A stretch of DNA of 64,000 nucleotides from Candidatus Eiseniibacteriota bacterium (lineage in GTDB: Bacteria; Eisenbacteria; RBG-16-71-46), in the NCBI GenBank assembly GCA_044223005.1, contig JBGAML010000003.1:262866-326865 (forward strand). Reading direction: 5' to 3'. Positions 1 to 13,413 of the stretch are shown here, piece after piece. The notes under the pieces are model-generated. The model did not search any database, was not told the origin of the DNA, and was given only the letters and a program-made list of their open reading frames with translations. The translations under genes and the position numbers were made by a program. The first letter of the stretch is position 1; each line of letters begins with the position of its first letter.

Positions 1-1401
1 CTCGACGAGGCGCGGCGGCTCGCGCGCGTGCGGCACCCGAACGTGCTGCAGGTGTTCGGCGTCGACGTGCGCGACGGCATCGCCGGCCTCTGGACCGAAC
101 TCGTGCACGGCGAGACGCTCGAGCAGCTGCTGCTCGCGCGCGGCCGGTTCGGGGCCGAGGAGGCCGCGGCGATCGGGCGCGAACTCTGCCGCGCGCTCGC
201 CGCGGTGCACGCCGCGGGGCTCGTGCACGGCGATCTCAAGCCGGGCAACGTCATGCGCGAGGACGGCGGCCGCATCGTGCTCATGGACTTCGGCTCCGGC
301 TTCGAGCCCGACGACGCGGCGGCACCGGTGGCGACCTCGCCGCTCGCGGCGGCGCCCGAGCGGCTCGCGGGTGATCCGGCGGGCCCCGCGTCGGATCTCT
401 ACTCGCTCGGCGTACTGCTCTTCCGGCTCGTCACCGCACGCTGGCCGGTCGAGGCCCCGACGCTCGAGGCGCTGCGCGCGCGGCACGCGGCGGGCGAGCG
501 CGCGTCGCTGCGCGAGTTGCGCCCCGACCTGCCGAGCGCGTTCGTCGCCGCGGTCGAGTCCGCGCTCGCCGCCGACCCGGCGCGCCGCGTGGCCACGGCG
601 GCGGACCTGGAGCGGCGACTGGGCGGCGCCGCGGCGCCGGTGCCGGCGCCGCCACGCGCGCAGCCGCGGGTGCGCGCGCGTGGCGTCGCCGCGTTCGCGG
701 CGGTGGCCGCACTCGTCGCGGTCGCGTGGTTCGCGTGGCGTCCGCGGCCCGAGCTCCCGGCCCCCGCCGTCACGCGCGACGCCGCCGTCGCGACGCCCAC
801 GTCCGCGCCGGCGCCGGTGACGCCCGCGGCTCCGGTGTCCGGTCGTTCGCGCCCGCTCGCCGACGCGCGGCTCTGGCGGCTGCACGAGGGCGAACGCGAA
901 GGGCTCTCGAGCGGTGGCGCCATCGCGCCCGGAGACCACCTCTGGCTCGCGTACGAGGCCACGGAGCCGCTGCACGTCTACGTGCTCGACGAGGACGACC
1001 ACGGCGAGACGTACGCGCTCTTTCCCGTCGCGGGGACCGATCTCGCGAACCCGCTGCGCGCGCATCGCGCGTTGCGGCTGCCGGGCTCGCGCGAAGGTCG
1101 CGAGTTCGACTGGGTCGTGACGAGCGCCGGCGGGCGCGAGCAAGTGCTCGTCGTCGCGTCGCGCGTGCCGCTGCCCGTGCTGGACCGGCTCGTCGCCGCG
1201 GTGCCCGCCGCCGATTCCGCGCAGCCCGTGCGGTACGCGGCCGTGGGCGAGGGCGCGATCGCGGCGCTGCGCGGCATCGGCGGCATGGCGCCGGCTCCGC
1301 CCGAAGCGCACGAGGGGCGCCTGGGCGCGCTGGCCCGCGAACTCGCGGCCCGGCCCGACTCGAGCGTCCGGGCGTGGCACCTGGTGCTCGCCGGGAAGTG
1401 A
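1..1401 (+). CDS. Ser/Thr protein kinase, 5'-truncated at window edge; kinase domain, one TM helix, Pro-rich linker, extracytoplasmic DUF4384-like domain
   Basis: Frame continues from nt 1 (LDEARRLARVRHPNVLQ...). Hanks kinase motifs HGDLKPGNV and MDFGSG are present. A hydrophobic stretch AFAAVAALVAVAWFAW is followed by a Pro/Ala-rich linker, then LWLAYEATEPLHVYVLDEDDHGETYALFPV, which is DUF4384-like. Third codon positions are G/C-rich. Confidence 0.75.
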   Translation, partial: LDEARRLARVRHPNVLQVFGVDVRDGIAGLWTELVHGETLEQLLLARGRFGAEEAAAIGRELCRALAAVHAAGLVHGDLKPGNVMREDGGRIVLMDFGSGFEPDDAAAPVATSPLAAAPERLAGDPAGPASDLYSLGVLLFRLVTARWPVEAPTLEALRARHAAGERASLRELRPDLPSAFVAAVESALAADPARRVATAADLERRLGGAAAPVPAPPRAQPRVRARGVAAFAAVAALVAVAWFAWRPRPELPAPAVTRDAAVATPTSAPAPVTPAAPVSGRSRPLADARLWRLHEGEREGLSSGGAIAPGDHLWLAYEATEPLHVYVLDEDDHGETYALFPVAGTDLANPLRAHRALRLPGSREGREFDWVVTSAGGREQVLVVASRVPLPVLDRLVAAVPAADSAQPVRYAAVGEGAIAALRGIGGMAPAPPEAHEGRLGALARELAARPDSSVRAWHLVLAGK

Positions 1402-1463
1402 TCCCGGCCGGCCCCGTCGATTTCGCGCTTCGGGCGGCCGTTTCCCGCCGATAATCTCTCGCG

Positions 1464-4400
1464 ATGCGTCTCGCCACGTTCCTGATCGTGCTGGCCCTCG
1501 CCGGAGCGGCACCCGCCGCGGCCCGGGCCAGCCGTGCGCCGTCGGATTCGCTCGCCTTCCGCCCGATCTCGCGGGTGGCGCGCTTCGTCGGATCGGCGAA
1601 GCGCGGACAGTGGACGGTGATGGACAGCCTCGCGCGCGCGGACTGGCAGGAACTCGTGCGCCGCGGGACGCGTGACTCGCTCGAGGTCGCTCGTGCCCTC
1701 GACGCCGTCGTCGAAGCCGGAGCCGCGGCGGGGCGCGCGCGCGACCCGCAGTTGCTGGCACTCGCCGACCGGGCCGTCGCGATCCACCAGCGGATGCCGG
1801 GGCCGGATTCGCTCCTCCTGTCGCGCTCGCTCCTCGCCCGCGGCGAGACGCGTCGCCGCCGCCGCGAGTTCGAGGAGGCGGAGAGCGACTTCGCCCGCAG
1901 CCTCGCGATCCGGGAACATGCGCTGCCCGCGGACGACATCGAAGTCGGCGACGCGCTGCGGTTCTGGGCCCTGCTCGACGCGATCCGTGGGCGCAATCGT
2001 GCGGTGAGCGAGGCCCGCCGGGCACTCGCGATCGCGGAGAAGTACTTCGGCCCGGACGACATGCGCCTGGCGAGCTACCTCTCGGTGCTCGGAGGCGAGC
2101 TCAACAACGACGGTGACCGGCTCGCCGCCTACCACGTGCTCCAGCGCTCGGCCACGATGGCGGAACGCATGCTCGGCCCGGATCACCCCGACACGGACCG
2201 CAGCCGCTACAACGTCGCCCTGCTCGCGATGCTGGTCGGCGACGTGGCCCACGCCCGCACGATGCTGGAGCGCAACGTCGAGTGGGAGTCGACCCACGCG
2301 CCGGTGGATTCGCTCCGGCTGCTCCTGTCGCTCGGTGCGCTCGTCGAGTGCCTCAACACATTCGGGGACCACGAGGAGGCGCTGCGGGTCGACCAGCGCG
2401 TTCGCGCGCTCGGTACCGTGTTGCTCCGCCCCGACGATCCGCAACGCGCCGAGGAGCATGTCCAGCGCGGGAACGCGTTCCTCGGGCTCGGCCGCGGGCG
2501 AGAGGCGGTGGCCGAGTACGACAGCGCGTTCGTGGGGCAGATGTGGGACACGCTGGGCGCGACGCCGATCCTGTTCTCCCGCGCGGCGGCGTGGCGCGCG
2601 GCCGGCGACACGGCACGTGCGCTCGAGACGATCGAACGCGCCTCCCGGCTCGCCGCGCGGGCCGGCGCGCGGGCACCCTCCTTCGACGAGCTGGGCCTCG
2701 TGTGGGGACAGGTGCTGGGCGATGCCGGGCGGTTCCCCGAAGCCCTGAAGGTGCTGGACCAGGCGGTGCAGGTGGCGGACAGCGTCGTCGGGCCGGAGTC
2801 CCCGATGCACGCCTCGCTGGTGCTCGAACGGGCGCGCGTGCGCGCCGCGGTCGGCGACCCGCGCGCGTGGGACGACGCGTGGGCGGGCGCCCGGTTGCGC
2901 GGCGAGCACCTGCGTGCGGCCGCGCGCGGCTTCCCCGAGCGCCAGGCGCTGCTCTACGCGCGTGACGCGGGGCTCGGGCTCGATCCGCTGCTGCAGCTCG
3001 CCGCCGCGGGCGGGCTCGACGCCGGCCGGCGCCGGCAGGTGTTCGAACGCGTCGTGGAATCACGCGCGCTCGTGCTCGACGAGATCGCGCGGCGCGAACA
3101 GCTCGCGCGGCGCGGCGGTGATCCCGGCGTCGCCGCGCGCGTCGATTCGCTCGTCGACGCCCGGGCCGAGCTGGCGCGGCAGCTCGTGCGCGCCGAGGCG
3201 GGCCGGACCGCGGATTCGTTGCGGCTCGAGGCGCGCCTGCGCGCCGAACGCTGCGAGCTCGCGCTCGGCGAAGCGGGCGGCGCCGGCCGCGACGGCGCGG
3301 GATCGCCGCTCGCACGGCTCGCCGCCGGCGAGGCGATCGTCTCGTACGTCGAATACGCCGGGGCCGGCGGCCGTCGCGACGGCGACCGGCGGCTGCTCGC
3401 GATGGTGGCCCGCGCCGACGGGCGCGTGGACGTCGTGGCGCTCGGCGACGCGGCGGCGCTCGAACGCGGCGTCGCCGCGTGGCGCGCCGACGTCGCGGGA
3501 GGCGTGAGCGTCGCGGCCGAGCGGCGCGTGCGCACGAGCGGCGCGGCGTTGCGCCGGCTCGCGTGGGATCCGCTCGCCCCGCTGCTCTCGGGCGTGGAGC
3601 GCGCGTGGATCGTGCCCGACGGTCCGCTCCAACTGGTCGACTTCGCGGCGCTGCCCGCGCGCGACGGGCGCTGGCTCGTGGAATCGGGCCCGCTGCTCGC
3701 GCGGCTGGGCGCCGAGCGCGACCTCGCCGCGCCCGCGGGCGCCGCGGAGACGGACGCCGCGGAGCTGCTCGCGATCGGCGGCCCGGACTTCGACCAGCGC
3801 GACGCCGCGACGCCGGTCTCGGCGACGCGCGGCCCGGCGGTCGCGTGCGTCCGCTTCCGCGAGGTGCGGTTCGGGGCGCTGCCCGGGGCGTCGGAGGAAG
3901 CGCACGACGTCGCGTCGCGCTGGACGGCGGCGGGCCGGCGCGCGCGCGTGCTCGAGGGCCGCGCGGCGGACGAAGCCGCGTTCAAGCGGTTCGCGCCGGA
4001 GTGCTCGGCGCTGCACGTGGCGACGCACGGCTTCTTCCTCGGCCCCGACTGCGACGGCGGCACCGCCGGGACGCGCGGCATCGGCGGGCTCGCGCCCGCA
4101 CCCGCGGCGGCGCTCGCGCCGGTCGCGGCGGACGTGGCCGAGAACCCGCTGCGGCTCGCCGGGCTCGCGTTCTCGGGCGCCAACCATCGCGACGAAGCCG
4201 GTGGCGCCGACGACGGCGTGCTCACCGCCGAGGAGATCGCGTCGCTCGATCTCGCGCGCGTGAGCGAAGTCGTGTTGTCGGCGTGCGAAAGCGGCGTGGG
4301 CGACGTCGCCGCGGGCGAGGGCGTCCTCGGCCTGCAGCGCGCGTTCCGCGTCGCGGGCGCGCGGGCGCTCGTCATGAGCCTGTGGCCGGTGGACGACCAC

Positions 4401-4568
4401 GTCGCACGCGACTGGATGCGGCTCTACTGGGACGCGCGGCTGTCGCGCCACGTCACCGTCGCGGAGGCCGTCCGCGCCGCGTCGCGCGCCCGGCTCGCGG
4501 CGCTGCGAGCCGCGCACCGGCCCACGCCGCCCGCGGCCTGGGCGGGCTTCGTCTCGCAGGGCGACTGA
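1464..4568 (+). CDS. Secreted TPR-repeat protein with C-terminal CHAT (caspase-like) protease domain
   Basis: N-terminal signal peptide MRLATFLIVLALAGAAPAAARA. TPR-like helical repeats span the central region. The C-terminus carries a His/Cys dyad in CHAT context: ALHVATHGFF ... VVLSACESGVGD. Confidence 0.7.
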   Translation: MRLATFLIVLALAGAAPAAARASRAPSDSLAFRPISRVARFVGSAKRGQWTVMDSLARADWQELVRRGTRDSLEVARALDAVVEAGAAAGRARDPQLLALADRAVAIHQRMPGPDSLLLSRSLLARGETRRRRREFEEAESDFARSLAIREHALPADDIEVGDALRFWALLDAIRGRNRAVSEARRALAIAEKYFGPDDMRLASYLSVLGGELNNDGDRLAAYHVLQRSATMAERMLGPDHPDTDRSRYNVALLAMLVGDVAHARTMLERNVEWESTHAPVDSLRLLLSLGALVECLNTFGDHEEALRVDQRVRALGTVLLRPDDPQRAEEHVQRGNAFLGLGRGREAVAEYDSAFVGQMWDTLGATPILFSRAAAWRAAGDTARALETIERASRLAARAGARAPSFDELGLVWGQVLGDAGRFPEALKVLDQAVQVADSVVGPESPMHASLVLERARVRAAVGDPRAWDDAWAGARLRGEHLRAAARGFPERQALLYARDAGLGLDPLLQLAAAGGLDAGRRRQVFERVVESRALVLDEIARREQLARRGGDPGVAARVDSLVDARAELARQLVRAEAGRTADSLRLEARLRAERCELALGEAGGAGRDGAGSPLARLAAGEAIVSYVEYAGAGGRRDGDRRLLAMVARADGRVDVVALGDAAALERGVAAWRADVAGGVSVAAERRVRTSGAALRRLAWDPLAPLLSGVERAWIVPDGPLQLVDFAALPARDGRWLVESGPLLARLGAERDLAAPAGAAETDAAELLAIGGPDFDQRDAATPVSATRGPAVACVRFREVRFGALPGASEEAHDVASRWTAAGRRARVLEGRAADEAAFKRFAPECSALHVATHGFFLGPDCDGGTAGTRGIGGLAPAPAAALAPVAADVAENPLRLAGLAFSGANHRDEAGGADDGVLTAEEIASLDLARVSEVVLSACESGVGDVAAGEGVLGLQRAFRVAGARALVMSLWPVDDHVARDWMRLYWDARLSRHVTVAEAVRAASRARLAALRAAHRPTPPAAWAGFVSQGD

Positions 4569-4638
4569 CGCGGCGCGGGGCCGCCGCGCGGCTCCGCTGT
4601 GGTAGGCTTCCCGGCCGCATCGCACCCGAGGAGTCGCC

Positions 4639-5967
4639 ATGTTCGAGACGCTCACCGACCGCTTCCAGGGCATCATCCGCAACCTCAGCGGCCAGGCCCG
4701 GATCACGCCCGACAACATCCGCGACTCGATGCGCGAGGTGCGCCGGGCGCTGCTCGAGGCCGACGTGCCGGTCGGCGTCGCCAAGGAGTTCGTGGCGCGT
4801 GTCGAGACGCGCGCGGTGGGCGAGGAGGTGCTCAAGCACCTCAAGCCCGGCCAGCAGGTGGTCGGGATCGTGCGCGACGAACTGGTGCGGCTGCTCGGCG
4901 ACCAGCCGGTGACGCTCGCGGGTTCGCCGCACCTGCCGACGGTCGTGCTGCTCGCGGGCCTGCAGGGCTCGGGCAAGACGACGTTCGCGGGCAAGCTCGC
5001 GAAGTGGCTCAAGGCTCGCGGCAAGCGCACGCTGCTCGCGAGCGCCGACGTCTACCGTCCCGCCGCGATCGACCAGCTCGAGCGCGTCGCGGCGCAGGCC
5101 GAGGCGGGCTTCTGGCGCGCGCCCGACGGCACGCCGCCGCGCGACATCGCGGCGCAGGCGCTGGAGGAGGCGCGCAAGCGCGGCTTCGACTTCTTCGTGC
5201 TCGACACCGCGGGCCGCCTGCACGTCGACGACGAGCTCATGAGCGAGCTCGCGACGCTCAAGACCACGGCGCGCGCACACCAGGTGCTGCTCGTGGTCGA
5301 CGGCATGATCGGGCAGGAGTCCGTGCGCGTCGGCCAGGCGTTCGCCGAGCGCGTGGGTGTGGACGGGCTCGTGCTCACCAAGATGGACGGCGACGCGCGC
5401 GGCGGCGCCGCGCTCAGCCTGCGCGAGGTGACGGGCAAGCCGATCCTGTTCCTCGGCGTCGGCGAGAAACTGGAAGGCCTCGAGGTGTTCGACGCCGGCC
5501 GGCTCGCCGGCCGCATCCTCGGCATGGGCGACGTGATCGGCCTCGTCGAGAAGGCGCAGGCCGCCGTCTCCGAGGGCGAGGCACTGCGCATGGCGGAGCG
5601 CATGCGCAAGTCCGAGTTCACGCTCGAGGACTTCCTCGAGCAGCTGCGCTCGGTGCGCAAGCTCGGCCCTCTCGAGGACGTGATCAAGATGCTGCCCGGC
5701 GTGCCGCGCGACGCGGCCGAGAAGCTCGGGCCGCAGAAGGACATGATGAAGCGCTACGAGGCGATCCTGCTCTCGATGACGCTCAAGGAGCGGCGCAACG
5801 CCCGCGTGATCGACGGCAGTCGCCGCCGCCGGATCGCCGCGGGCAGCGGCACCACGGTCACCGACGTGAACCGCCTGCTCAAGGACTTCGAGCAGGCGCG
5901 CGTGATGATGAAGGCCCTGAAGAAGGGCCCGCGGGGACTCGCCGGCCTGCGCGGCCGGATGCGCTGA
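4639..5967 (+). CDS. ffh: Signal recognition particle protein Ffh
   Basis: MFETLTDRFQGIIRNLSG N-domain. SRP GTPase Walker A GLQGSGKTT, plus DTAGR and TKMDGDARGG motifs. C-terminal Met-rich M domain. Confidence 0.95.
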   Translation: MFETLTDRFQGIIRNLSGQARITPDNIRDSMREVRRALLEADVPVGVAKEFVARVETRAVGEEVLKHLKPGQQVVGIVRDELVRLLGDQPVTLAGSPHLPTVVLLAGLQGSGKTTFAGKLAKWLKARGKRTLLASADVYRPAAIDQLERVAAQAEAGFWRAPDGTPPRDIAAQALEEARKRGFDFFVLDTAGRLHVDDELMSELATLKTTARAHQVLLVVDGMIGQESVRVGQAFAERVGVDGLVLTKMDGDARGGAALSLREVTGKPILFLGVGEKLEGLEVFDAGRLAGRILGMGDVIGLVEKAQAAVSEGEALRMAERMRKSEFTLEDFLEQLRSVRKLGPLEDVIKMLPGVPRDAAEKLGPQKDMMKRYEAILLSMTLKERRNARVIDGSRRRRIAAGSGTTVTDVNRLLKDFEQARVMMKALKKGPRGLAGLRGRMR

Positions 5968-6075: not shown

Positions 6076-6215
6076 GCCGGGCCTTTGCGGGGACCGCGGG
6101 CGCGCTCCCCGGTGTGATGCGCGCCACGTCGATCGCGAGTCCGCCGAAGTCACGAACTGATCACGTCTGGACGGGCCCCGAGGCCCGGTTTCACCTCACC
6201 CGGAGGCAGTACAGC

Positions 6216-6623
6216 ATGGCGGTCGTCATTCGCATGATGCGGGCCGGCGCGAAGAAGCGGCCCTTCTACCGTGTCGTGGTCGCCGATTCGCGGCGCCAGC
6301 GCGATGGTCGTTTCGTCGAGATCCTCGGCTACTACGACCCGATCGCGAAGCCCTTCAACTTCAAGATCGACGAAGAGAAGGTCAAGGGCTGGATCGCGCA
6401 GGGGGCCACGCCGTCGGAGCAGGTCGCATCGCTGCTCCGCCGCAACGGCATCTACGCGTCGCGTCCGAGCAAGCCGCAGGCGAAGAAGGCCGCGGCCCCC
6501 GCGCGCAAGAAGCCGGTCAAGCCTTCGAAGCCCAAGAAGGAAACCGACCGCAAGGCCAAGAACAAGGCCGCGCGCGTGAAGAAGAAGGCCAACCCCAAGA
6601 AGCCGCAGCCCAAGAAGAAGTAG
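6216..6623 (+). CDS. rpsP: 30S ribosomal protein S16 with Lys/Ala/Pro-rich C-terminal tail
   Basis: [42 protein letters not shown] is a canonical S16 N-terminus. GGAGG lies 8 nt upstream of the ATG at 6216. The upstream extension of the ORF-track entry is not supported. Confidence 0.9.
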
Positions 6624-7359: not shown

Positions 7360-7382
7360 GCAAACAGCGCTTTCTTGTTTGC
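7360..7382 (+). promoter_or_regulatory. Perfect 7-bp inverted repeat GCAAACA-N9-TGTTTGC about 65 nt upstream of serS
   Basis: Read directly in the sequence. It could be an operator-type palindrome or a hairpin. Confidence 0.25.
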
Positions 7383-7446
7383 TCTCGCGGTCCGTCGCAC
7401 GTACGCGTGGCGCGCGCCGCGCCGACCCGAACCCCGGCTGGAACCC

Positions 7447-8727
7447 ATGCTCGACCTCAAGTTCCTGCGCACCCATCGCGACAAAGTCGAAGCCGGCATC
7501 GCCCTCAAGGGCATGACCGTCGACCTGTCGCGCTTCTACCAGATCGAAGAGCGCCGGCTCGCGCTGCTGCACGAGACCGAGCAGCTCAAGGCGCGGCGCA
7601 ACTCGGCCAGCGAAGAGATCGCCACGCTCAAGAAGACCGGGAAGGACGCCTCCGGTCCCATCGCCGAGATGCGCACGCTCGGCGATCGCGTGAAGGAACT
7701 CGACGAGCAGCTGCGCCAGCTCGAGGAGGAGAGCACCAACCTCGCCGCGTGGATCCCGAACCTGCCGCATGCCAGCGTGCCGCCCGGCCAGGACGCCACG
7801 CAGAACCAGCTCGTGCGGCAGGTCGGCGAGCCGCCCAAGTTCGACTTCGAGCCCAAGCCGCACTGGGAGCTCGCCACGAACCTCGGCCTGCTCGACTTCG
7901 AGCGCGCCACCAAGATCGCCGGCTCCGGGTTCCTGCTGTTCACCGGGCGAGGGGCGCGGCTCGAGCGGGCGCTGATCAGCTTCATGCTCGACATGCACAC
8001 CACGAAGCACGGCTACACCGAGTACTCGCCGCCGCACGTCATCCGGCGCGCCGCGCTGCACGGCACCGGCCAGCTGCCCAAGCTCGAAGGCGACATGTAT
8101 CACATCGGTGAGGACGACCTGTTCCTCAACCCGACCGCCGAGGTGCCCGTCACGAACATCTGGCGCGAGGAGATCCTCGAACCCGGCAAGCTGCCGCACT
8201 ACGCGACCGCGTACTGCGCGTCGTACCGGCGCGAGGCCGGTGCCGCCGGGCGCGACACGCGTGGCATGGTGCGCGTGCACCAGTTCGACAAGGTCGAGCT
8301 CGTCAAGATCGTGCCCGCGGAGACCAGCTACGACGAGCATGAAAAGCTCGCGCGCGACGTCGCCGACGTGTTCGAGGCGCTGGAACTGCCGTATCGCGTC
8401 GTGCTGCTCTGCAGCGGCGACATGAGTTTCGCCGCCGCCAAGTGCTACGACTTCGAAGTCTGGTCGCCGGGCACGCAGGGCTGGCTCGAGTGCTCGTCGT
8501 GCTCGAACTTCGAGGACTTCCAGGCGCGCCGCATGGGGCTCCGCTATCGCCGCGAAGCCGGGGCGAAGACCGAGTTCCCGCACACGCTGAACGCGTCGGG
8601 CGTCGCGCTGCCGCGCACGTTCGCGACGCTGCTCGAGAACCACCAGACGGCTTCGGGTTCGGTGCGCATCCCGAAGGCGCTGCAACCCTACCTCGGCGGC
8701 CTGCAGGAACTGACGCCCGAGGGCTGA
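7447..8727 (+). CDS. serS: Seryl-tRNA synthetase
   Basis: MLDLKFLRTHRDKVEAGIALKG N-terminal coiled-coil arm. Class II aaRS core motifs are present (FTGRGARLERALISFMLD..., GYTEYSPPH). Confidence 0.95.
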   Translation: MLDLKFLRTHRDKVEAGIALKGMTVDLSRFYQIEERRLALLHETEQLKARRNSASEEIATLKKTGKDASGPIAEMRTLGDRVKELDEQLRQLEEESTNLAAWIPNLPHASVPPGQDATQNQLVRQVGEPPKFDFEPKPHWELATNLGLLDFERATKIAGSGFLLFTGRGARLERALISFMLDMHTTKHGYTEYSPPHVIRRAALHGTGQLPKLEGDMYHIGEDDLFLNPTAEVPVTNIWREEILEPGKLPHYATAYCASYRREAGAAGRDTRGMVRVHQFDKVELVKIVPAETSYDEHEKLARDVADVFEALELPYRVVLLCSGDMSFAAAKCYDFEVWSPGTQGWLECSSCSNFEDFQARRMGLRYRREAGAKTEFPHTLNASGVALPRTFATLLENHQTASGSVRIPKALQPYLGGLQELTPEG

Positions 8728-8776: not shown

Positions 8777-10066
8777 ATGGAAGAACCGGCACGGCCGCGC
8801 CTGTGGGGCAAGCAGCTGCTCAAGACCGGCCTGTTCGCCGGGGGCAGCCTGCTCGTGGCCGCCGTGTTCCTCTTCACCTGGCAGACCGCCGGGCAGCTGT
8901 CCAAGGAGGTCATGACGACCTCGCAGCTGCTCGCGGAGTTCAGCGCGCAGGCGTCCGTGCTCGCGACGCGGGATCCCGCGCTGCACGAGATCTTCGCCCG
9001 GCTGATCGACCACGTCGATTTCCCGATCGTGATCACGGACAACACCGGCCTGCCGCGCGCGTGGCACGCGGTCACCGCGCCCGGCGACACCGTCTCGATC
9101 GAGACGCTCGACAGTCTCGCCATGAATCGTCCCGTGGCGCCCGTCATGGCGGCGCGCGTCGAGCGGCTCAAGGCGCGCATCGCCGAACTCGACCGGCGGC
9201 ACCGGCCGATCCCGGTGAACCTGCCGGGCACCGTGATTCCCATGGGCCACCTGCACTACGGCGACCCGCCGACGATCGCGCGGCTGCGCTGGATGCCCTA
9301 CGCGACGCTCGGTGGAACCGGACTGCTGCTCCTGCTCGGGCTCTCCGGCCTCGCCGGCATCCGGCAGGCGGAAAAGCGCACGATCTGGGTCGGTATGGCC
9401 AAGGAAACCGCACACCAGCTCGGCACGCCGCTCTCGAGCCTGCTCGGCTGGATCGAGTTGCTGCGAGCGCACGTCGAATCGGCGCCGCCCGGCGGGCAGG
9501 TGCAGATCGCGACGGCCGAGCTCGCCGAGACGCTGGACGACATGGAGCGCGACGTCGAGCGCCTGAACAAGGTCGCGCAGCGGTTCAGCCAGATCGGCTC
9601 GACGCCGCAGCTGCAGCTGCAGGACGTCACGCCCGTCGTGCGCGAGGCCGTGCAGTACGTGCGGCGGCGGCTGCCGCAGCGCCAGGGCGACGTCGAGATC
9701 CGCGAGCGCTACGAGGAGGTGCCGCCTATCAACCTCAATCGCGAGCTGATCGAGTGGGCGGTCGAGAACCTGCTCACGAACGCGGTCACCGCGATGGACA
9801 AGAAGCCGGGCGTGATCGAGGTCTCGGTCGAACGCCGCGCCGAGACCGAGGAAGTGGAGATCGCCGTCACGGACAACGGGCGCGGCATGTCGCGCGACGA
9901 GCAGCGCCGGGCGTTCGAGCCGGGCTACTCGACCAAGCGCCGCGGCTGGGGACTCGGGCTCGCGCTCGCGCGGCGCGTGATCGAGGAGTACCACGCGGGC
10001 CGCATCGGCATCCGCGAGAGCGCGCCGGGGCAGGGCACCACGATGGTGATCCGCTTCCCCACGTAG
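8777..10066 (+). CDS. Sensor histidine kinase (two TM helices, HisKA plus HATPase_c)
   Basis: TM segments near the N-terminus. H-box HQLGTPLSSLLGWIELL. ATPase motifs NLLTNAV, DNGRGM and GWGLGLALARRVIEEYHAG. Confidence 0.85.
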   Translation: MEEPARPRLWGKQLLKTGLFAGGSLLVAAVFLFTWQTAGQLSKEVMTTSQLLAEFSAQASVLATRDPALHEIFARLIDHVDFPIVITDNTGLPRAWHAVTAPGDTVSIETLDSLAMNRPVAPVMAARVERLKARIAELDRRHRPIPVNLPGTVIPMGHLHYGDPPTIARLRWMPYATLGGTGLLLLLGLSGLAGIRQAEKRTIWVGMAKETAHQLGTPLSSLLGWIELLRAHVESAPPGGQVQIATAELAETLDDMERDVERLNKVAQRFSQIGSTPQLQLQDVTPVVREAVQYVRRRLPQRQGDVEIRERYEEVPPINLNRELIEWAVENLLTNAVTAMDKKPGVIEVSVERRAETEEVEIAVTDNGRGMSRDEQRRAFEPGYSTKRRGWGLGLALARRVIEEYHAGRIGIRESAPGQGTTMVIRFPT

Positions 10067-11199: not shown

Positions 11200-13170
11200 T
11201 CAGTGGATCCGGAAGCGCTCCACCACCGCGAGCAGCTTCTCGCTGGCGTCCGTGGACTCGCCGGTGGCGGCCGCCAGTTCGCCGGCGCGCCCCGCCATCT
11301 GCCGGACGGCGCCGTCCATCTCGTCCATGGCGCAGCGCACCTCGTCCAGGCCCGCCGACTGCTCCGCGCTCGCGCGGGCGATCTCGGCCACGCGCTGGCC
11401 CGCGTCGCGCACCGCGGCGACGATCTGTTCGAGGTTCTCGCCCGAGCGGCGCACCAGTTGCGCGCCGGCATTCACGCGGTCGTCGGTCTCCCGCACCAGC
11501 TCGCGGATGTCCTTCGCGCTCGCCGCGCAGCGGCCCGCCAGCTGGCGCACCTCCGCAGCGACCACGGCGAAGCCGCGGCCCTGCTCCCCGGCGCGCGCGG
11601 CCTCGACCGCGGCATTCAGCGCGAGCAGGTTGGTACGGAACGCGATCTCGTCGATCACTTCGACGATTTCGGTGATGCGCCGCGCCTGCGTCTCGACCTG
11701 GTGCATGGCGTCGACGGCGTCGCGCACCACGGCGCCGCCCTGCTCGGCGACCGTCCGCGCGTCGCCGGCGCTGCGGTGCGCCGCGCGCGCCGCTTCGGCC
11801 GTGCGCTGCGTCGTGTCGGCCAGCTGCTGCACGCGGCCGTTCGTCGCGTCGAGCCGCTCGGCCTGCTCGCGCGACGTCGCCGCGAGGTCGTCGCTCGCCG
11901 CGGCGTAGGCCCGCGAGGTCTCGCGCAGCACGCCGCCCGCCTCGCGCGCCTCGCGCATCGCCTCGCGCGTGCTGCCCACCGCGCGATCGAGCGCCGTGGC
12001 GAGCCGCGCGAGCTCGTCCTCGCCCGGGACCGCGAGCGTCTGCGTGAGGTCACCCTCGGCCACGCGCTCCAGCACGGCGACGCCGCGCCCGAGGGGCGCG
12101 AGCACGCGGCGCGCGGTCCAGCCGGCCGCGGCGACGATCGGCACCAGCGCGAGCAGCAGCCCGGCCAGCACCGCGAACGTCGTCGCGCGCACCGGCGCGA
12201 GCACCGTGGAGCGGGGCACCGTGACCACGAGCGCCCACACCTCCGCGCTCGTCCCGACGCGGAACGGCACCAGCGTGCGCTCGACCTCGGTGCGCAGCCA
12301 CGGGTCGCGCCCCACGAGCCGCACCGCTTCTCCGCGTCCGAGCGCGGGCCAGATCCGCGCGAGATCGCCCAACTCCGACGCCGGGTGGCCGAGCCGCGAC
12401 GGGTCCGGATGGCTCACCCACAGGCCGCCCTGGCTCACGAGCCCGAGCACGCCGTCGCCCATCGGGTGGTGCGCCGACAGCCGGCGCTGCACGTCCGAGA
12501 GCGCGACGTCCGCGCCCGCGACCGCGATGAACCGGCCGCGGTCCCAGAACGGCACGCACAGGCTCGTCATCAGGATCGAGTCGCGTCCGACCATGTCCTT
12601 GTATGGCTCCATCAGCATCTCGCGCCCGGCGCGCCGCGGCAGCCAGTAGAAGTCGCCCGATTCGTAGCCCGGCGACGTGGGCTGCGGCTTCAGCCCTTCT
12701 TCGCGCCGCACCCACCACGGCATGAACCGTCCCTGCTCGTCGGCGTCTGGCTGGCCGCGGTGCGCGGCGTCGGCGCCGTCGAACGTTTCGCGATCGAACT
12801 CCACCCACGTGCCCACCGCCTGCGGCACGCGCGCCACGGCCCGCGCCACGAGGGACTCGGCGAGCGCCCGCGACGGGGCACCCGAACGCCGCAGGACGAC
12901 GATACCGTCCGCGAGATTGCGCGCCGTCTGGAACGGAACCTCGAACGCGGGGTAGACCTCGTCGGCGCTCGCGCGCGCGATCGCCTCGAGCTGCGCGTGC
13001 GCGTTGCGCTCCGCCTGCGAGTGGAGTCGCAGGGAGAGCCCCACGGCGAGAGTGCCCAGCACCACGGCCGCGACCAGGACCTGCGACAGCGCGAGGCGCC
13101 GGGCGATGCTGCGGCGGCCCGCGCGCGCGAGCGCGCCGGGCAGGAACGAGGCGAGGCGTCCGATGTTCAT
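11200..13170 (-). CDS. Methyl-accepting chemotaxis protein with periplasmic Cache-like sensor, HAMP and MCP signalling domain
   Basis: N-terminal TM, an approximately 280-aa periplasmic domain, and a second TM. HAMP region follows. The highly conserved MCP signalling region is present ([29 protein letters not shown]). The start is set at MNIGRL (ATG 13170). Confidence 0.85.
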
Positions 13171-13413
13171 CCGGGCTCCGGAAACGGGGAAAGGCGCCGC
13201 GCACGGGGCCGGCGTGCGGCTCGCGCGAAACGTGGCGAACCCCCGGAAGTCTCGGCGGTTCGCGCGCGGACTGGAGGCGTTCCGGCGACGCGTCCCGGCC
13301 GCCCGCAAGTGACGGCGAGCAGGGCCGCAGCGGCGTTGGCCGCTGCGGCGCGCGCGGCCTTATAGTGACTTCGCGCTCCCCGCTGCGGGGGAGCCACAAC
13401 CCATCGAGGCACC

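Follow-up and report, generated by a model that had tools for sequence, protein, structure and literature searches.

A sigma factor, receptor kinase and TPR-CHAT protease form a conserved unit in Eisenbacteria and Acidobacteriota, with a co-varying motif that suggests direct action of the protease on the kinase sensor

What does a bacterial receptor kinase share with a caspase-like protease encoded directly beside it? This question is raised by nt 1-4568 (forward strand) of a 64,000-nt stretch of a Candidatus Eiseniibacteriota genome (contig JBGAML010000003.1), hereafter the window, where the 3' part of a transmembrane Ser/Thr kinase gene is followed by a gene for a predicted exported protein that combines a TPR array with a CHAT domain. 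A first-pass annotation of the letters had proposed that this pair is a coupled extracytoplasmic signalling or conflict module of uncharacterized role. We found that the two genes form a conserved unit with a third, encoding a sigma factor of the extracytoplasmic function (ECF) type, and that the kinase and the CHAT protein share a rare motif that co-varies between neighbours. As judged from their sequences, the three proteins may constitute a periplasmic protease-gated receptor kinase that controls the ECF sigma factor, a reading for and against which we see equal weight. The G+C content was 67-79% across the window (2-kb blocks) and ~77% over the two genes, which are arranged as follows.

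1-1401, forward strand: 3' part of the receptor Ser/Thr kinase gene (codons 119-584 of the full-length protein P0121, plus stop), with Pfam matches to Pkinase and DUF4384 and 100% identity to P0121 over the fragment.
1402-1463, forward strand: spacer of 62 nt from the kinase gene to the CHAT gene, in which a scan found no terminator-like or sigma-70-like site.
1464-4568, forward strand: gene for the secreted TPR-CHAT protein (caspase-like, clan CD; 1034 residues, P0001), from Pfam matches to CHAT and to TPR_12 (five copies), an AlphaFold2 (AF2) model and a fold search.

Open reading frames, Pfam matches and motif checks agreed with all features of the first-pass annotation at their positions, including the 62-nt gap to a co-oriented gene (stop codon 1399-1401, ATG at 1464), and Pfam profiles matched all four of the domains it had named (Pkinase, DUF4384, CHAT and TPR). 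Co-transcription of the kinase and CHAT genes is likely; in relatives the two either overlap or lie 10-130 nt apart.

The full-length kinase has 584 residues and the window begins at its codon 119, such that frame 1 is open from nt 1 over 466 residues, while the first 118 codons and the sigma factor gene lie upstream, outside the window. The Pkinase match on the window fragment (E 8.7e-25, 88 bits) covers profile positions 47-253, and because it begins at position 47 the N-lobe is missing from the fragment. Against PF00069 the full-length protein scored 112.8 bits (cutoff 31.7), and with its catalytic residues in place (VALK101-104, HGDLKPGN194-201 and DFG214-216) it is a Hanks-type Ser/Thr kinase. 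VALK, H(G/R)D..N and DFG are conserved in the family (120 homologues); HGD makes P0121 a non-RD kinase, as is most of the family. A conserved N-terminal extension of ~75 residues precedes the kinase domain throughout the family and matched no Pfam entry, including no anti-sigma family. The parts encoded within the window are listed below.

226-300, forward strand: kinase catalytic loop HGDLKPGN (226-249) and DFG motif (286-300), from motif reading and family conservation.
682-738, forward strand: single transmembrane helix GVAAFAAVAALVAVAWFAW, where the Kyte-Doolittle window score of P0121 peaks (2.12), with no second segment of this kind.
739-828, forward strand: Pro/Ala-rich extracytoplasmic linker RPRPELPAPAVTRDAAVATPTSAPAPVTPA, from the translation.
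829-1398, forward strand: ecto-domain of 190 residues, consisting of a beta-sandwich with DUF4384 (nt 925-1170), then two helices separated by a disordered loop, and a terminal strand, from AF2 and Pfam.

Basic residues (RAQPRVRARG) precede the helix GVAAFAAVAALVAVAWFAW on its N-terminal, cytoplasmic side, and the predicted topology is N-in/C-out. The PknB-like arrangement proposed earlier, with kinase domain, one transmembrane helix, Pro-rich linker and DUF4384 module, was thus borne out by Pfam, hydropathy and translation. The DUF4384 assignment (PF14326) had an E-value of 6e-11 and 42.7 bits (cutoff 27) over profile positions 3-81 of 81. In the AF2 model of the ecto-domain (mean predicted local distance difference test, pLDDT, 86.2; predicted template modelling score, pTM, 0.84), the sole disordered loop is at residues 151-159 (pLDDT < 50), between one helix and the final helix and strand, which pack back onto the beta-sandwich. 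A fold search of the PDB with the ecto-domain returned no significant match. Its family comprised 726 representatives (50% identity clusters) at E ≤ 1e-30, and the majority of those listed were kinases of ~600 residues with the domain at the extreme C-terminus. There are also longer kinase variants of ~1050 residues (P0385, P0390, P0449 and P0468), which carry TPR repeats between the kinase/transmembrane part and the C-terminal DUF4384 ecto-domain.

The neighbouring protein has the features of a TPR-CHAT protease, in which a TPR superhelix precedes a caspase-like fold with an intact His/Cys dyad. Pfam matched CHAT (PF12770) at E 5e-54 and 184 bits (cutoff 24), as well as TPR_10, TPR_NPHP3 and five copies of TPR_12, and the protein was divided as follows.

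1464-1529, forward strand: predicted Sec signal peptide MRLATFLIVLALAGAAPAAARA, with cleavage after A20-R21-A22 (next residue Ser), from a heuristic sequence reading and AF2.
1578-3275, forward strand: TPR/helical-repeat array, residues ~39-604, with ~29 consecutive helices in AF2 and Pfam TPR matches.
3537-4565, forward strand: CHAT protease domain, residues 692-1034, from Pfam and motif checks.

By heuristic reading, MRLATFLIVLALAGAAPAAARA has the shape of a signal peptide, with an Arg in the n-region, an h-region of 14 residues and an AxA site; AF2 gave a helix at residues 2-14 and then a disordered stretch at 14-32, and comparable N-terminal hydrophobic segments were present in nearly all of the 60 homologues inspected. 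Export of the protein is accordingly predicted. Together with the single transmembrane helix of the kinase, these conserved signal-peptide-like N-termini support the earlier placement of both the sensor module and the CHAT protease outside the cytoplasm. The catalytic residues are His855 in HVATHG (nt 4026-4028) and Cys941 in LSACESG (nt 4284-4286). Among 111 scorable homologues His855 was invariant, and 110 had Cys941, the remaining one showing a gap in the alignment and not another residue. The protein that had been described, with TPR array, CHAT domain and intact dyad behind a predicted signal peptide, is confirmed by Pfam, by the residues and by its homologues. The AF2 model (pLDDT 82.9) had as top Foldseek matches human separase, DdvA (8rw5, 8rot) and Csx29 (8eey_B, TMt 0.56), with E-values from 4e-11 to 1e-8, while PDB sequence searches with the protein or the family profile returned TPR proteins only. 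In those searches the array resembled the cargo-binding TPRs of kinesin light chain, and it is a putative scaffold for ligand or partner binding.

The kinase ecto-domain and the CHAT protein have in common the motif (L/T)RG(I/V)GG(L/M)AP, with one copy in each.

1267-1293, forward strand: kinase copy LRGIGGMAP, with Arg542 of P0121, in the context AALRGIGGMAPAP; a putative cleavage or docking site (alignment, AF2 loop, co-variation).
4071-4097, forward strand: CHAT copy TRGIGGLAP, with Arg871, in the context GTRGIGGLAPAP; a putative autoprocessing or pseudosubstrate site (alignment, AF2 loop).

The kinase copy opens the disordered loop of the ecto-domain, ~45 residues before the C-terminus, and the CHAT copy lies in a flexible loop (residues 861-894, pLDDT < 50) just after the strand that bears His855, which places Arg871 16 residues past the catalytic His. 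Six-frame translation of the window yielded two matches to R[GSA][IV]GG[LM], one per protein, compared to 0.26 expected in the window and 0.003 expected in the two proteins. The motif Arg was invariant in the ecto-domain alignment, and R[GSA][IVLM][GA]G was found at the equivalent place in 96 of 120 kinase family members. Among 120 CHAT homologues, 65 carried the motif at most 45 residues from the His, and it was absent from distant CHAT proteins without a kinase partner. Two non-catalytic cysteines, Cys795 (nt 3846-3848) and Cys863 (nt 4050-4052), were found in every one of the 65 homologues with the motif and, each, in 34 of the 46 without it (in 25 and 24, respectively, of the 28 sequences of alignment A1). 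Both are in low-confidence loops near the active site, Cys863 within the motif loop, and they may form a disulfide that constrains this loop, as expected of an exported protein. We rejected an origin of the motif by gene conversion or recent duplication, since the flanks are unrelated and synonymous sites differ.

We assessed co-variation between the two copies in 27 non-identical cognate pairs, extracted automatically, using the best ungapped BLOSUM62 score of each kinase motif against the loop of its neighbour. The mean score was 30.0 in cognate pairs and 22.4 ± 0.92 in re-paired ones (z = 8.2, 0 of 200,000 permutations), the own neighbour was the single best match for 9 of the 27 kinases, and the effect held when positions 5-10 alone were scored. 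Joint changes were found in six loci.

L146: kinase RGVGEIG, CHAT protein RGVGEIG.
L132: kinase GGVEPL, CHAT protein GGVEPI.
L122: kinase RGVGGVSPL, CHAT protein RGVGGVGPI.
L105: kinase RGVAGMKPS, CHAT protein RGIAGLKPS.
L037: kinase RGIGGLKTE, CHAT protein RGIGGVTTE.
L065: kinase RSIQLRK, CHAT protein RGIHLRQ.

Of the joint changes, five or six at a minimum seem to have arisen separately, and shared ancestry alone has no power to drive two unrelated proteins in the same direction. As the same co-varying motif sits in exposed loops of both proteins, both loops should meet one binding site, and the sharing of the motif suggests that the protease acts directly on the sensor domain of the kinase. 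In four loci (L031, L032, L018 and L065) module genes were split across frames by apparent frameshifts, which may be assembly errors or pseudogenes and degraded motif extraction; L032 was an outlier in the pair test because of its frame-split gene.

Conservation of the gene neighbourhood was assessed from two sides. Profile hidden Markov models of the kinase N-terminal extension, kinase domain, ecto-domain, CHAT family and sigma factor were run over the open reading frames of 87 loci, in which each kinase of the family had before it a sigma factor gene, always from one family (12 loci). Around the closest CHAT homologues the picture varied: a Pkinase-DUF4384 gene lay directly upstream in two cases and other genes did so in three orthologue types (five loci), and in one locus (L007) the ECF sigma gene overlaps the kinase gene, which in turn overlaps the CHAT gene. 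Gene orders near the TPR-CHAT gene included sigma-kinase-CHAT, CHAT-sigma-kinase, divergent and convergent arrangements. Loci with all three genes were from Eisenbacteria and from Acidobacteriota/Vicinamibacterales, and cyanobacterial and other distant CHAT loci had no sigma-kinase pair. From the other side, metagenome contigs scanned by the ecto-domain only returned 80 loci, which we annotated. Of the 52 loci whose upstream sequence was long enough, 48 had the sigma gene upstream of the kinase gene. TPR-CHAT genes were present in 38 of the 80, many contigs ending less than 1 kb from the kinase, and in 9 of the 10 loci with at least 4.5 kb upstream and at least 3.5 kb downstream. A CHAT gene directly following the kinase gene was the commonest order (24 loci), and others were further downstream (4), upstream in the same orientation (5) or divergent (5). 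The activities are also fused: in a Chthoniobacterales metagenome-assembled genome (L058, 1265-7444, forward strand), one open reading frame of 2060 residues runs from Pkinase through a transmembrane segment and TPR array to CHAT. The post-His loop of the fusion lacks the RGIGG motif, and the fusion independently links kinase and CHAT activities across the membrane; its layout resembles that of the anti-sigma factor DdvA, with a kinase where DdvA has its anti-sigma domain.

These results indicate that kinase-CHAT adjacency is far beyond chance and is kept through rearrangements, whether loci are centred on the CHAT or on the kinase gene, and that sigma factor, kinase and protease are one conserved unit. 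The pairing recognized in the first-pass annotation is real, but the unit has three genes, with that of the ECF sigma factor just upstream. We can hardly credit the explanation that the proteins are independent neighbours, adjacent by chance or for shared transcription, with the motif arising by chance from the Arg, Gly, Ala and Pro bias of a 77% G+C genome. Both proteins are rich in Gly, Ala and Pro, and the genes upstream of the three closest CHAT orthologue types (five loci) are different ones, but two motif matches in two proteins expected to hold 0.003, the z of 8.2, the L058 fusion and adjacency across phyla and gene orders all speak against it. Conserved adjacency, motif rarity and co-variation effectively refute chance adjacency.

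The sigma factor of the source genome (P0282, 211 residues) is encoded by a gene that overlaps the kinase start by 20 nt. A contig from a short-read assembly of the same sample (L168; Logan) carries rpe, the sigma gene and the kinase start, and matches window positions 1-249 at 100%. P0282 matched Sigma70_r2 (47 bits), Sigma70_r4_2 (33 bits) and Sigma70_ECF (23.2 bits, cutoff 21.1), as an ECF sigma factor does, and its orthologues pass TIGR02937, with the Planctomycete-type TIGR02984 as the nearest subfamily, below cutoff. Region 2.2 reads DTDD in 105 and ETDD in 9 of 120 homologues, and the conserved Thr at position 2 of DTDD is a possible phospho-site. The sigma factor is likely to be the output of the module. 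How the kinase would reach it is a separate matter, and we consider it decidedly unlikely that the kinase serves as an anti-sigma tether, whose N-terminal extension and kinase domain would hold the sigma factor until a site-1 cut by the CHAT protease and an RseP-like site-2 cut release it, with phosphorylation secondary or absent. The model for DdvA, a periplasmic TPR-CHAT anti-sigma factor, is identical except for a zinc anti-sigma (ZAS) domain in place of the kinase; the conserved N-terminal extension would supply a holding surface, and with DTDD kept, the sigma factor has no obvious need of phosphate for core binding. Yet that extension matches no anti-sigma family, conserved catalytic residues would be superfluous in a pure tether, and a cut at the motif, so near the C-terminus, would leave ~150 ecto-domain residues, unlike usual site-2 licensing.

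The order in the source genome is rpe, sigma-kinase-CHAT, ffh, and these housekeeping flanks (rpe upstream; ffh, rpsP and serS downstream) are also kept in relatives. No CRISPR, cas or other defence genes adjoin the module, and a tandem-repeat scan found no CRISPR array (repeats separated by spacers). This context bears on the suggestion, made for the locus earlier, of a conflict module, in which a caspase-like effector under kinase control would turn on foreign proteins or cause cell death or arrest. CHAT and caspase-like proteases and Ser/Thr kinases do recur in defence systems, the DdvA/DdvS pair controls a defence island, and the kinase domain matched PADLOC kinase models, PD-T4-6 and mad6 among them. 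However, the PADLOC matches are confined to the generic kinase domain, with nothing matching the CHAT protein or the sigma factor, the locus lies between housekeeping genes as it does in relatives, and a periplasmic site is ill-suited to an intracellular executioner. We therefore regard a role in conflict, defence or cell death as unsupported and very improbable. The proposal of a coupled extracytoplasmic protease/kinase signalling module, by contrast, is supported by the conserved pairing, the L058 fusion and the co-varying motif.

How, then, might a protease gate the kinase? In the more specific model, which we put forward tentatively and with some reserve, the secreted TPR-CHAT protease would bear a copy of its substrate's sequence in a loop serving autoinhibition or autoprocessing and, on a periplasmic cue, cleave the identical, co-evolving motif in the DUF4384 sensor, turning on the cognate ECF sigma factor. 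In the periplasm, the protease would be held inactive by its own (T)RG(I/V)GG(L/M) loop beside the active site, acting as a pseudosubstrate or autoprocessing site, until a signal sensed by the TPR array frees or cuts this loop. The protease would then bind the (L)RG(I/V)GG(L/M) loop of the kinase, probably cutting after the invariant Arg (P1), the shared binding site of both loops being most simply the CHAT active site and the kinase loop either a substrate in trans or a competitor of the loop in cis. Such a cut would detach or loosen the helix and strand with which the sensor domain ends and alter kinase activity across the membrane. The kinase would in turn act on the co-encoded sigma factor, likely by phosphorylation, by analogy with other kinase-linked ECF groups, or, less likely, by release of a kinase-sigma complex, and the outcome would be changed transcription.

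The co-varying motif points to a common site and not in itself to cutting, and it fits equally well a non-proteolytic co-sensor, an explanation that we think unlikely. There the TPR-CHAT protein would be a periplasmic scaffold or ligand receptor that reversibly binds the RG(I/V)GG loop of the kinase through the TPR groove or a silent active site; its own loop would compete in cis, and signalling would work by a switch of partners in which no bond is cut. TPR arrays are peptide-binding modules, this one is like those of kinesin light chain, and the CHAT domain of DdvA was seen in a resting state, with no cleavage reported yet (PMC11506125). Retained catalysis is nonetheless argued for by a His that is invariant and a Cys that is never substituted in 111 homologues, and an invariant Arg in an exposed loop, 16 residues past the His as in PmC11 and clostripain, fits a scissile site.

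Several observations weigh against the protease-gated kinase that we favour. Cleavage at the motif Arg is, like every mechanistic step above, a sequence inference, and the specificity of CHAT proteases is not uniformly for Arg: Csx29 cuts after Leu or Met, while separase, the best structural match, cuts after Arg. Across the 111 homologues, no acidic S1-type residue separated motif-bearing from motif-free CHAT proteins. The permutation test ignores kinship among loci, such that one inherited joint change may be counted several times, and its count overstates significance because related loci are not independent. Two kinases (L095 and L152) keep the motif while their divergent CHAT neighbours lack it, and the motif pairs of L089 and L026 match poorly. 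The three closest CHAT orthologue types (five loci, L002-L006) have no adjoining kinase gene, and four kinases with long flanks (L108, L131, L143 and L150) have no CHAT gene nearby. At the output end, the sigma factor keeps DTDD, so the logic of the ECF43 group, in which phosphate supplies a missing negative charge, is not directly transferable, and no conserved -35/-10-like dyad upstream of 55 sigma genes exceeded shuffled controls. In L089 (8530-9894 and 10890-14228) ffh lies between the kinase and CHAT genes, and the loop reads VRGVGRLTKP where the kinase has LRGIGGMAPA; the cognate protease looks to have been lost or replaced there.

Other genes recur near the module. Between the sigma and CHAT genes of Vicinamibacterales/Acidobacteriota modules there is a Peptidase_C11 gene (clostripain family, Pfam E 4e-18 to 5e-21), which makes its product the second clan-CD protease of the unit in these groups.

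L014, 7546-8877: Peptidase_C11 gene.
L026, 7611-9164: Peptidase_C11 gene.
L024, 2486-3886: Peptidase_C11 gene.
L018, 2119-4476: Peptidase_C11 gene.
L032, 8290-9489: Peptidase_C11 gene.
L012, 7612-8922: weaker case.
L043, 6735-9125: weaker case.

We rejected Peptidase_C11 as a general Arg-specific protease for both loops, because neither the window nor the Eisenbacteria loci contain it and no signal peptide is obvious in its sequence. Near the module in 17 of 92 kinase loci are genes for large secreted repeat proteins that end in a FlgD_ig domain, and such genes are also directly upstream of the closest CHAT orthologues that have no kinase neighbour; examples are given below.

L002, 4550-6952: FlgD_ig protein gene.
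L003-L005, 1230-3632: FlgD_ig protein genes.
L092, 1039-3786: FlgD_ig protein gene.

These proteins could be regulon members, but given how very common the family is in these genomes they are probably background. In L033 (8561-22553), L074 (6899-15300), L079 (2140-8548) and L061 (6981-12622), large TPR-CHAT paralogues stand in tandem or back-to-back arrays of two or three and lack the kinase/sigma pair. Within the window, a G+C-rich inverted repeat CGCGGCGCGGGGCCGCCGCGCGG (4569-4600) lies between the CHAT stop codon and the ffh start (4639) and was not reported by the terminator scan because it has no T-run. The genes that follow, named from their translations, are listed below, and no tRNA or Rfam match was found in the whole 64 kb.

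4639-5967: ffh.
Within 6114-6623: rpsP.
~7375-8727: serS.
8777-10066: histidine-kinase-like open reading frame.
11200-13308, minus strand: methyl-accepting-chemotaxis-like open reading frame.

Receptor Ser/Thr kinases, ECF sigma factors and CHAT proteases are three strands of signalling so far described separately, and the module that would join them is found widely among uncultivated phyla of soil and sediment (Eisenbacteria and Acidobacteriota). If our reading is true, it represents a previously undescribed coupling of extracytoplasmic proteolysis to sigma-factor control, and DUF4384 would be a protease-addressed sensor module, explaining its presence in Csx30 and in protease fusions; for a domain known only from fusions to kinases and proteases, this would be a first functional handle. 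The shared motif names the Arg expected to be cut and the two proteins in which this would happen, a prediction that is precise, cheap and falsifiable, and if the motif is a genuine specificity code, cognate protease/kinase pairs could be used as orthogonal, programmable signalling parts. The interest lies in this protease-gated receptor architecture and its sharp motif prediction, which extend known kinds of system rather than adding a new category. The triad of sigma factor, kinase and secreted CHAT protein, or the shared motif, was not described in the accessible literature, of which coverage was incomplete such that novelty is unproven; within that literature, the pairing is uncharacterized, as had been stated.

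Among known systems, the closest on the kinase side are the kinase-associated ECF groups (ECF43, 59-62, 217, 267 and 283), a broad kind to which the sigma-kinase pair belongs. Phosphorylation of the sigma factor by a neighbouring kinase is described for EcfP/PknT in Vibrio parahaemolyticus and EcfK/PknS in Xanthomonas citri, both of ECF43. As in those pairs, the sigma gene here stands beside that of a transmembrane Hanks-type kinase, with no separate anti-sigma gene, and the kinase has an extracytoplasmic sensor and an N-terminal extension before its catalytic domain (a conserved 83 residues in PknS of Xanthomonas). Unlike ECF43, in which DAED is lost and an uncharged, Ser/Thr-rich STTA or QTTA with the phospho-Thr takes its place, the sigma factor of the module, which we accordingly do not place in ECF43, retains the acidic DTDD, as other kinase-linked groups keep their acidic motif and may work differently (PMC8999054). 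The sensor is DUF4384 where that of PknS is TPR, and compared to the kinase-linked ECF groups as described in the accessible literature, the module adds a secreted TPR-CHAT protease as a third partner. CHAT proteins, carboxypeptidases and subtilases are conserved near ECF54 genes and have been proposed as regulators of sigma factors that lack an anti-sigma factor, but the listed ECF54 representative is actinobacterial (Geodermatophilus) and no kinase partner is mentioned (PMC8999054).

On the protease side, PmC11 and clostripain are activated by self-cleavage at a Lys or Arg 5-14 residues past the catalytic His (Lys147 with His133 in PmC11, Arg181/Arg190 in clostripain), in a loop that blocks the active site until cut (PMC4850288). 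Arg871 of the CHAT protein is likewise a basic residue in the loop after the catalytic His, but these enzymes belong to another clan CD family, and in the module the motif, a putative cleavage site, is also on a second protein. The craspase set of type III-E systems (Csx29, Csx30, Csx31 and RpoE) offers the same combination of TPR-CHAT protease, ECF sigma factor and DUF4384 protein: Csx29 cleaves Csx30, a binder of the ECF sigma factor, and one Csx30 subgroup has a C-terminal DUF4384 domain. Craspase, however, is cytoplasmic and RNA-activated through Cas7-11, whereas the module has neither Cas7-11 nor a CRISPR array, nor any cas genes, between its flanks (rpe and the sigma gene; ffh and rpsP), its protease has a predicted signal peptide, and its DUF4384 protein is a receptor kinase. 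That an unrelated system also has DUF4384 beside a TPR-CHAT protein and an ECF sigma factor is, by analogy, a suggestive lead rather than a test.

DdvA provides the nearest parallel for the protease. It was called in 2024 the sole characterized periplasmic TPR-CHAT protein upstream of an ECF sigma factor, and has been proposed to be its own site-1 protease, the CHAT domain cutting a flexible extracytoplasmic linker as the first signalling step (PMC11506125). Both proteins are periplasmic TPR-CHAT proteins with a His/Cys dyad and a link to an ECF sigma factor, the fold search placed DdvA among its top matches, and the CHAT protein may work similarly by analogy. In DdvA, though, ZAS domain, transmembrane helix and TPR-CHAT region form one polypeptide that would cut itself in trans within a dimer, whereas the CHAT protein of the module has no anti-sigma domain, is separate and secreted, has a kinase rather than a ZAS domain as its partner, and has its putative site in a motif found in both proteins. 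DdvA and craspase have recently placed TPR-CHAT proteases upstream of ECF sigma factors, and to these the module would add a third arrangement, with the protease free in the periplasm and a kinase as its membrane partner.

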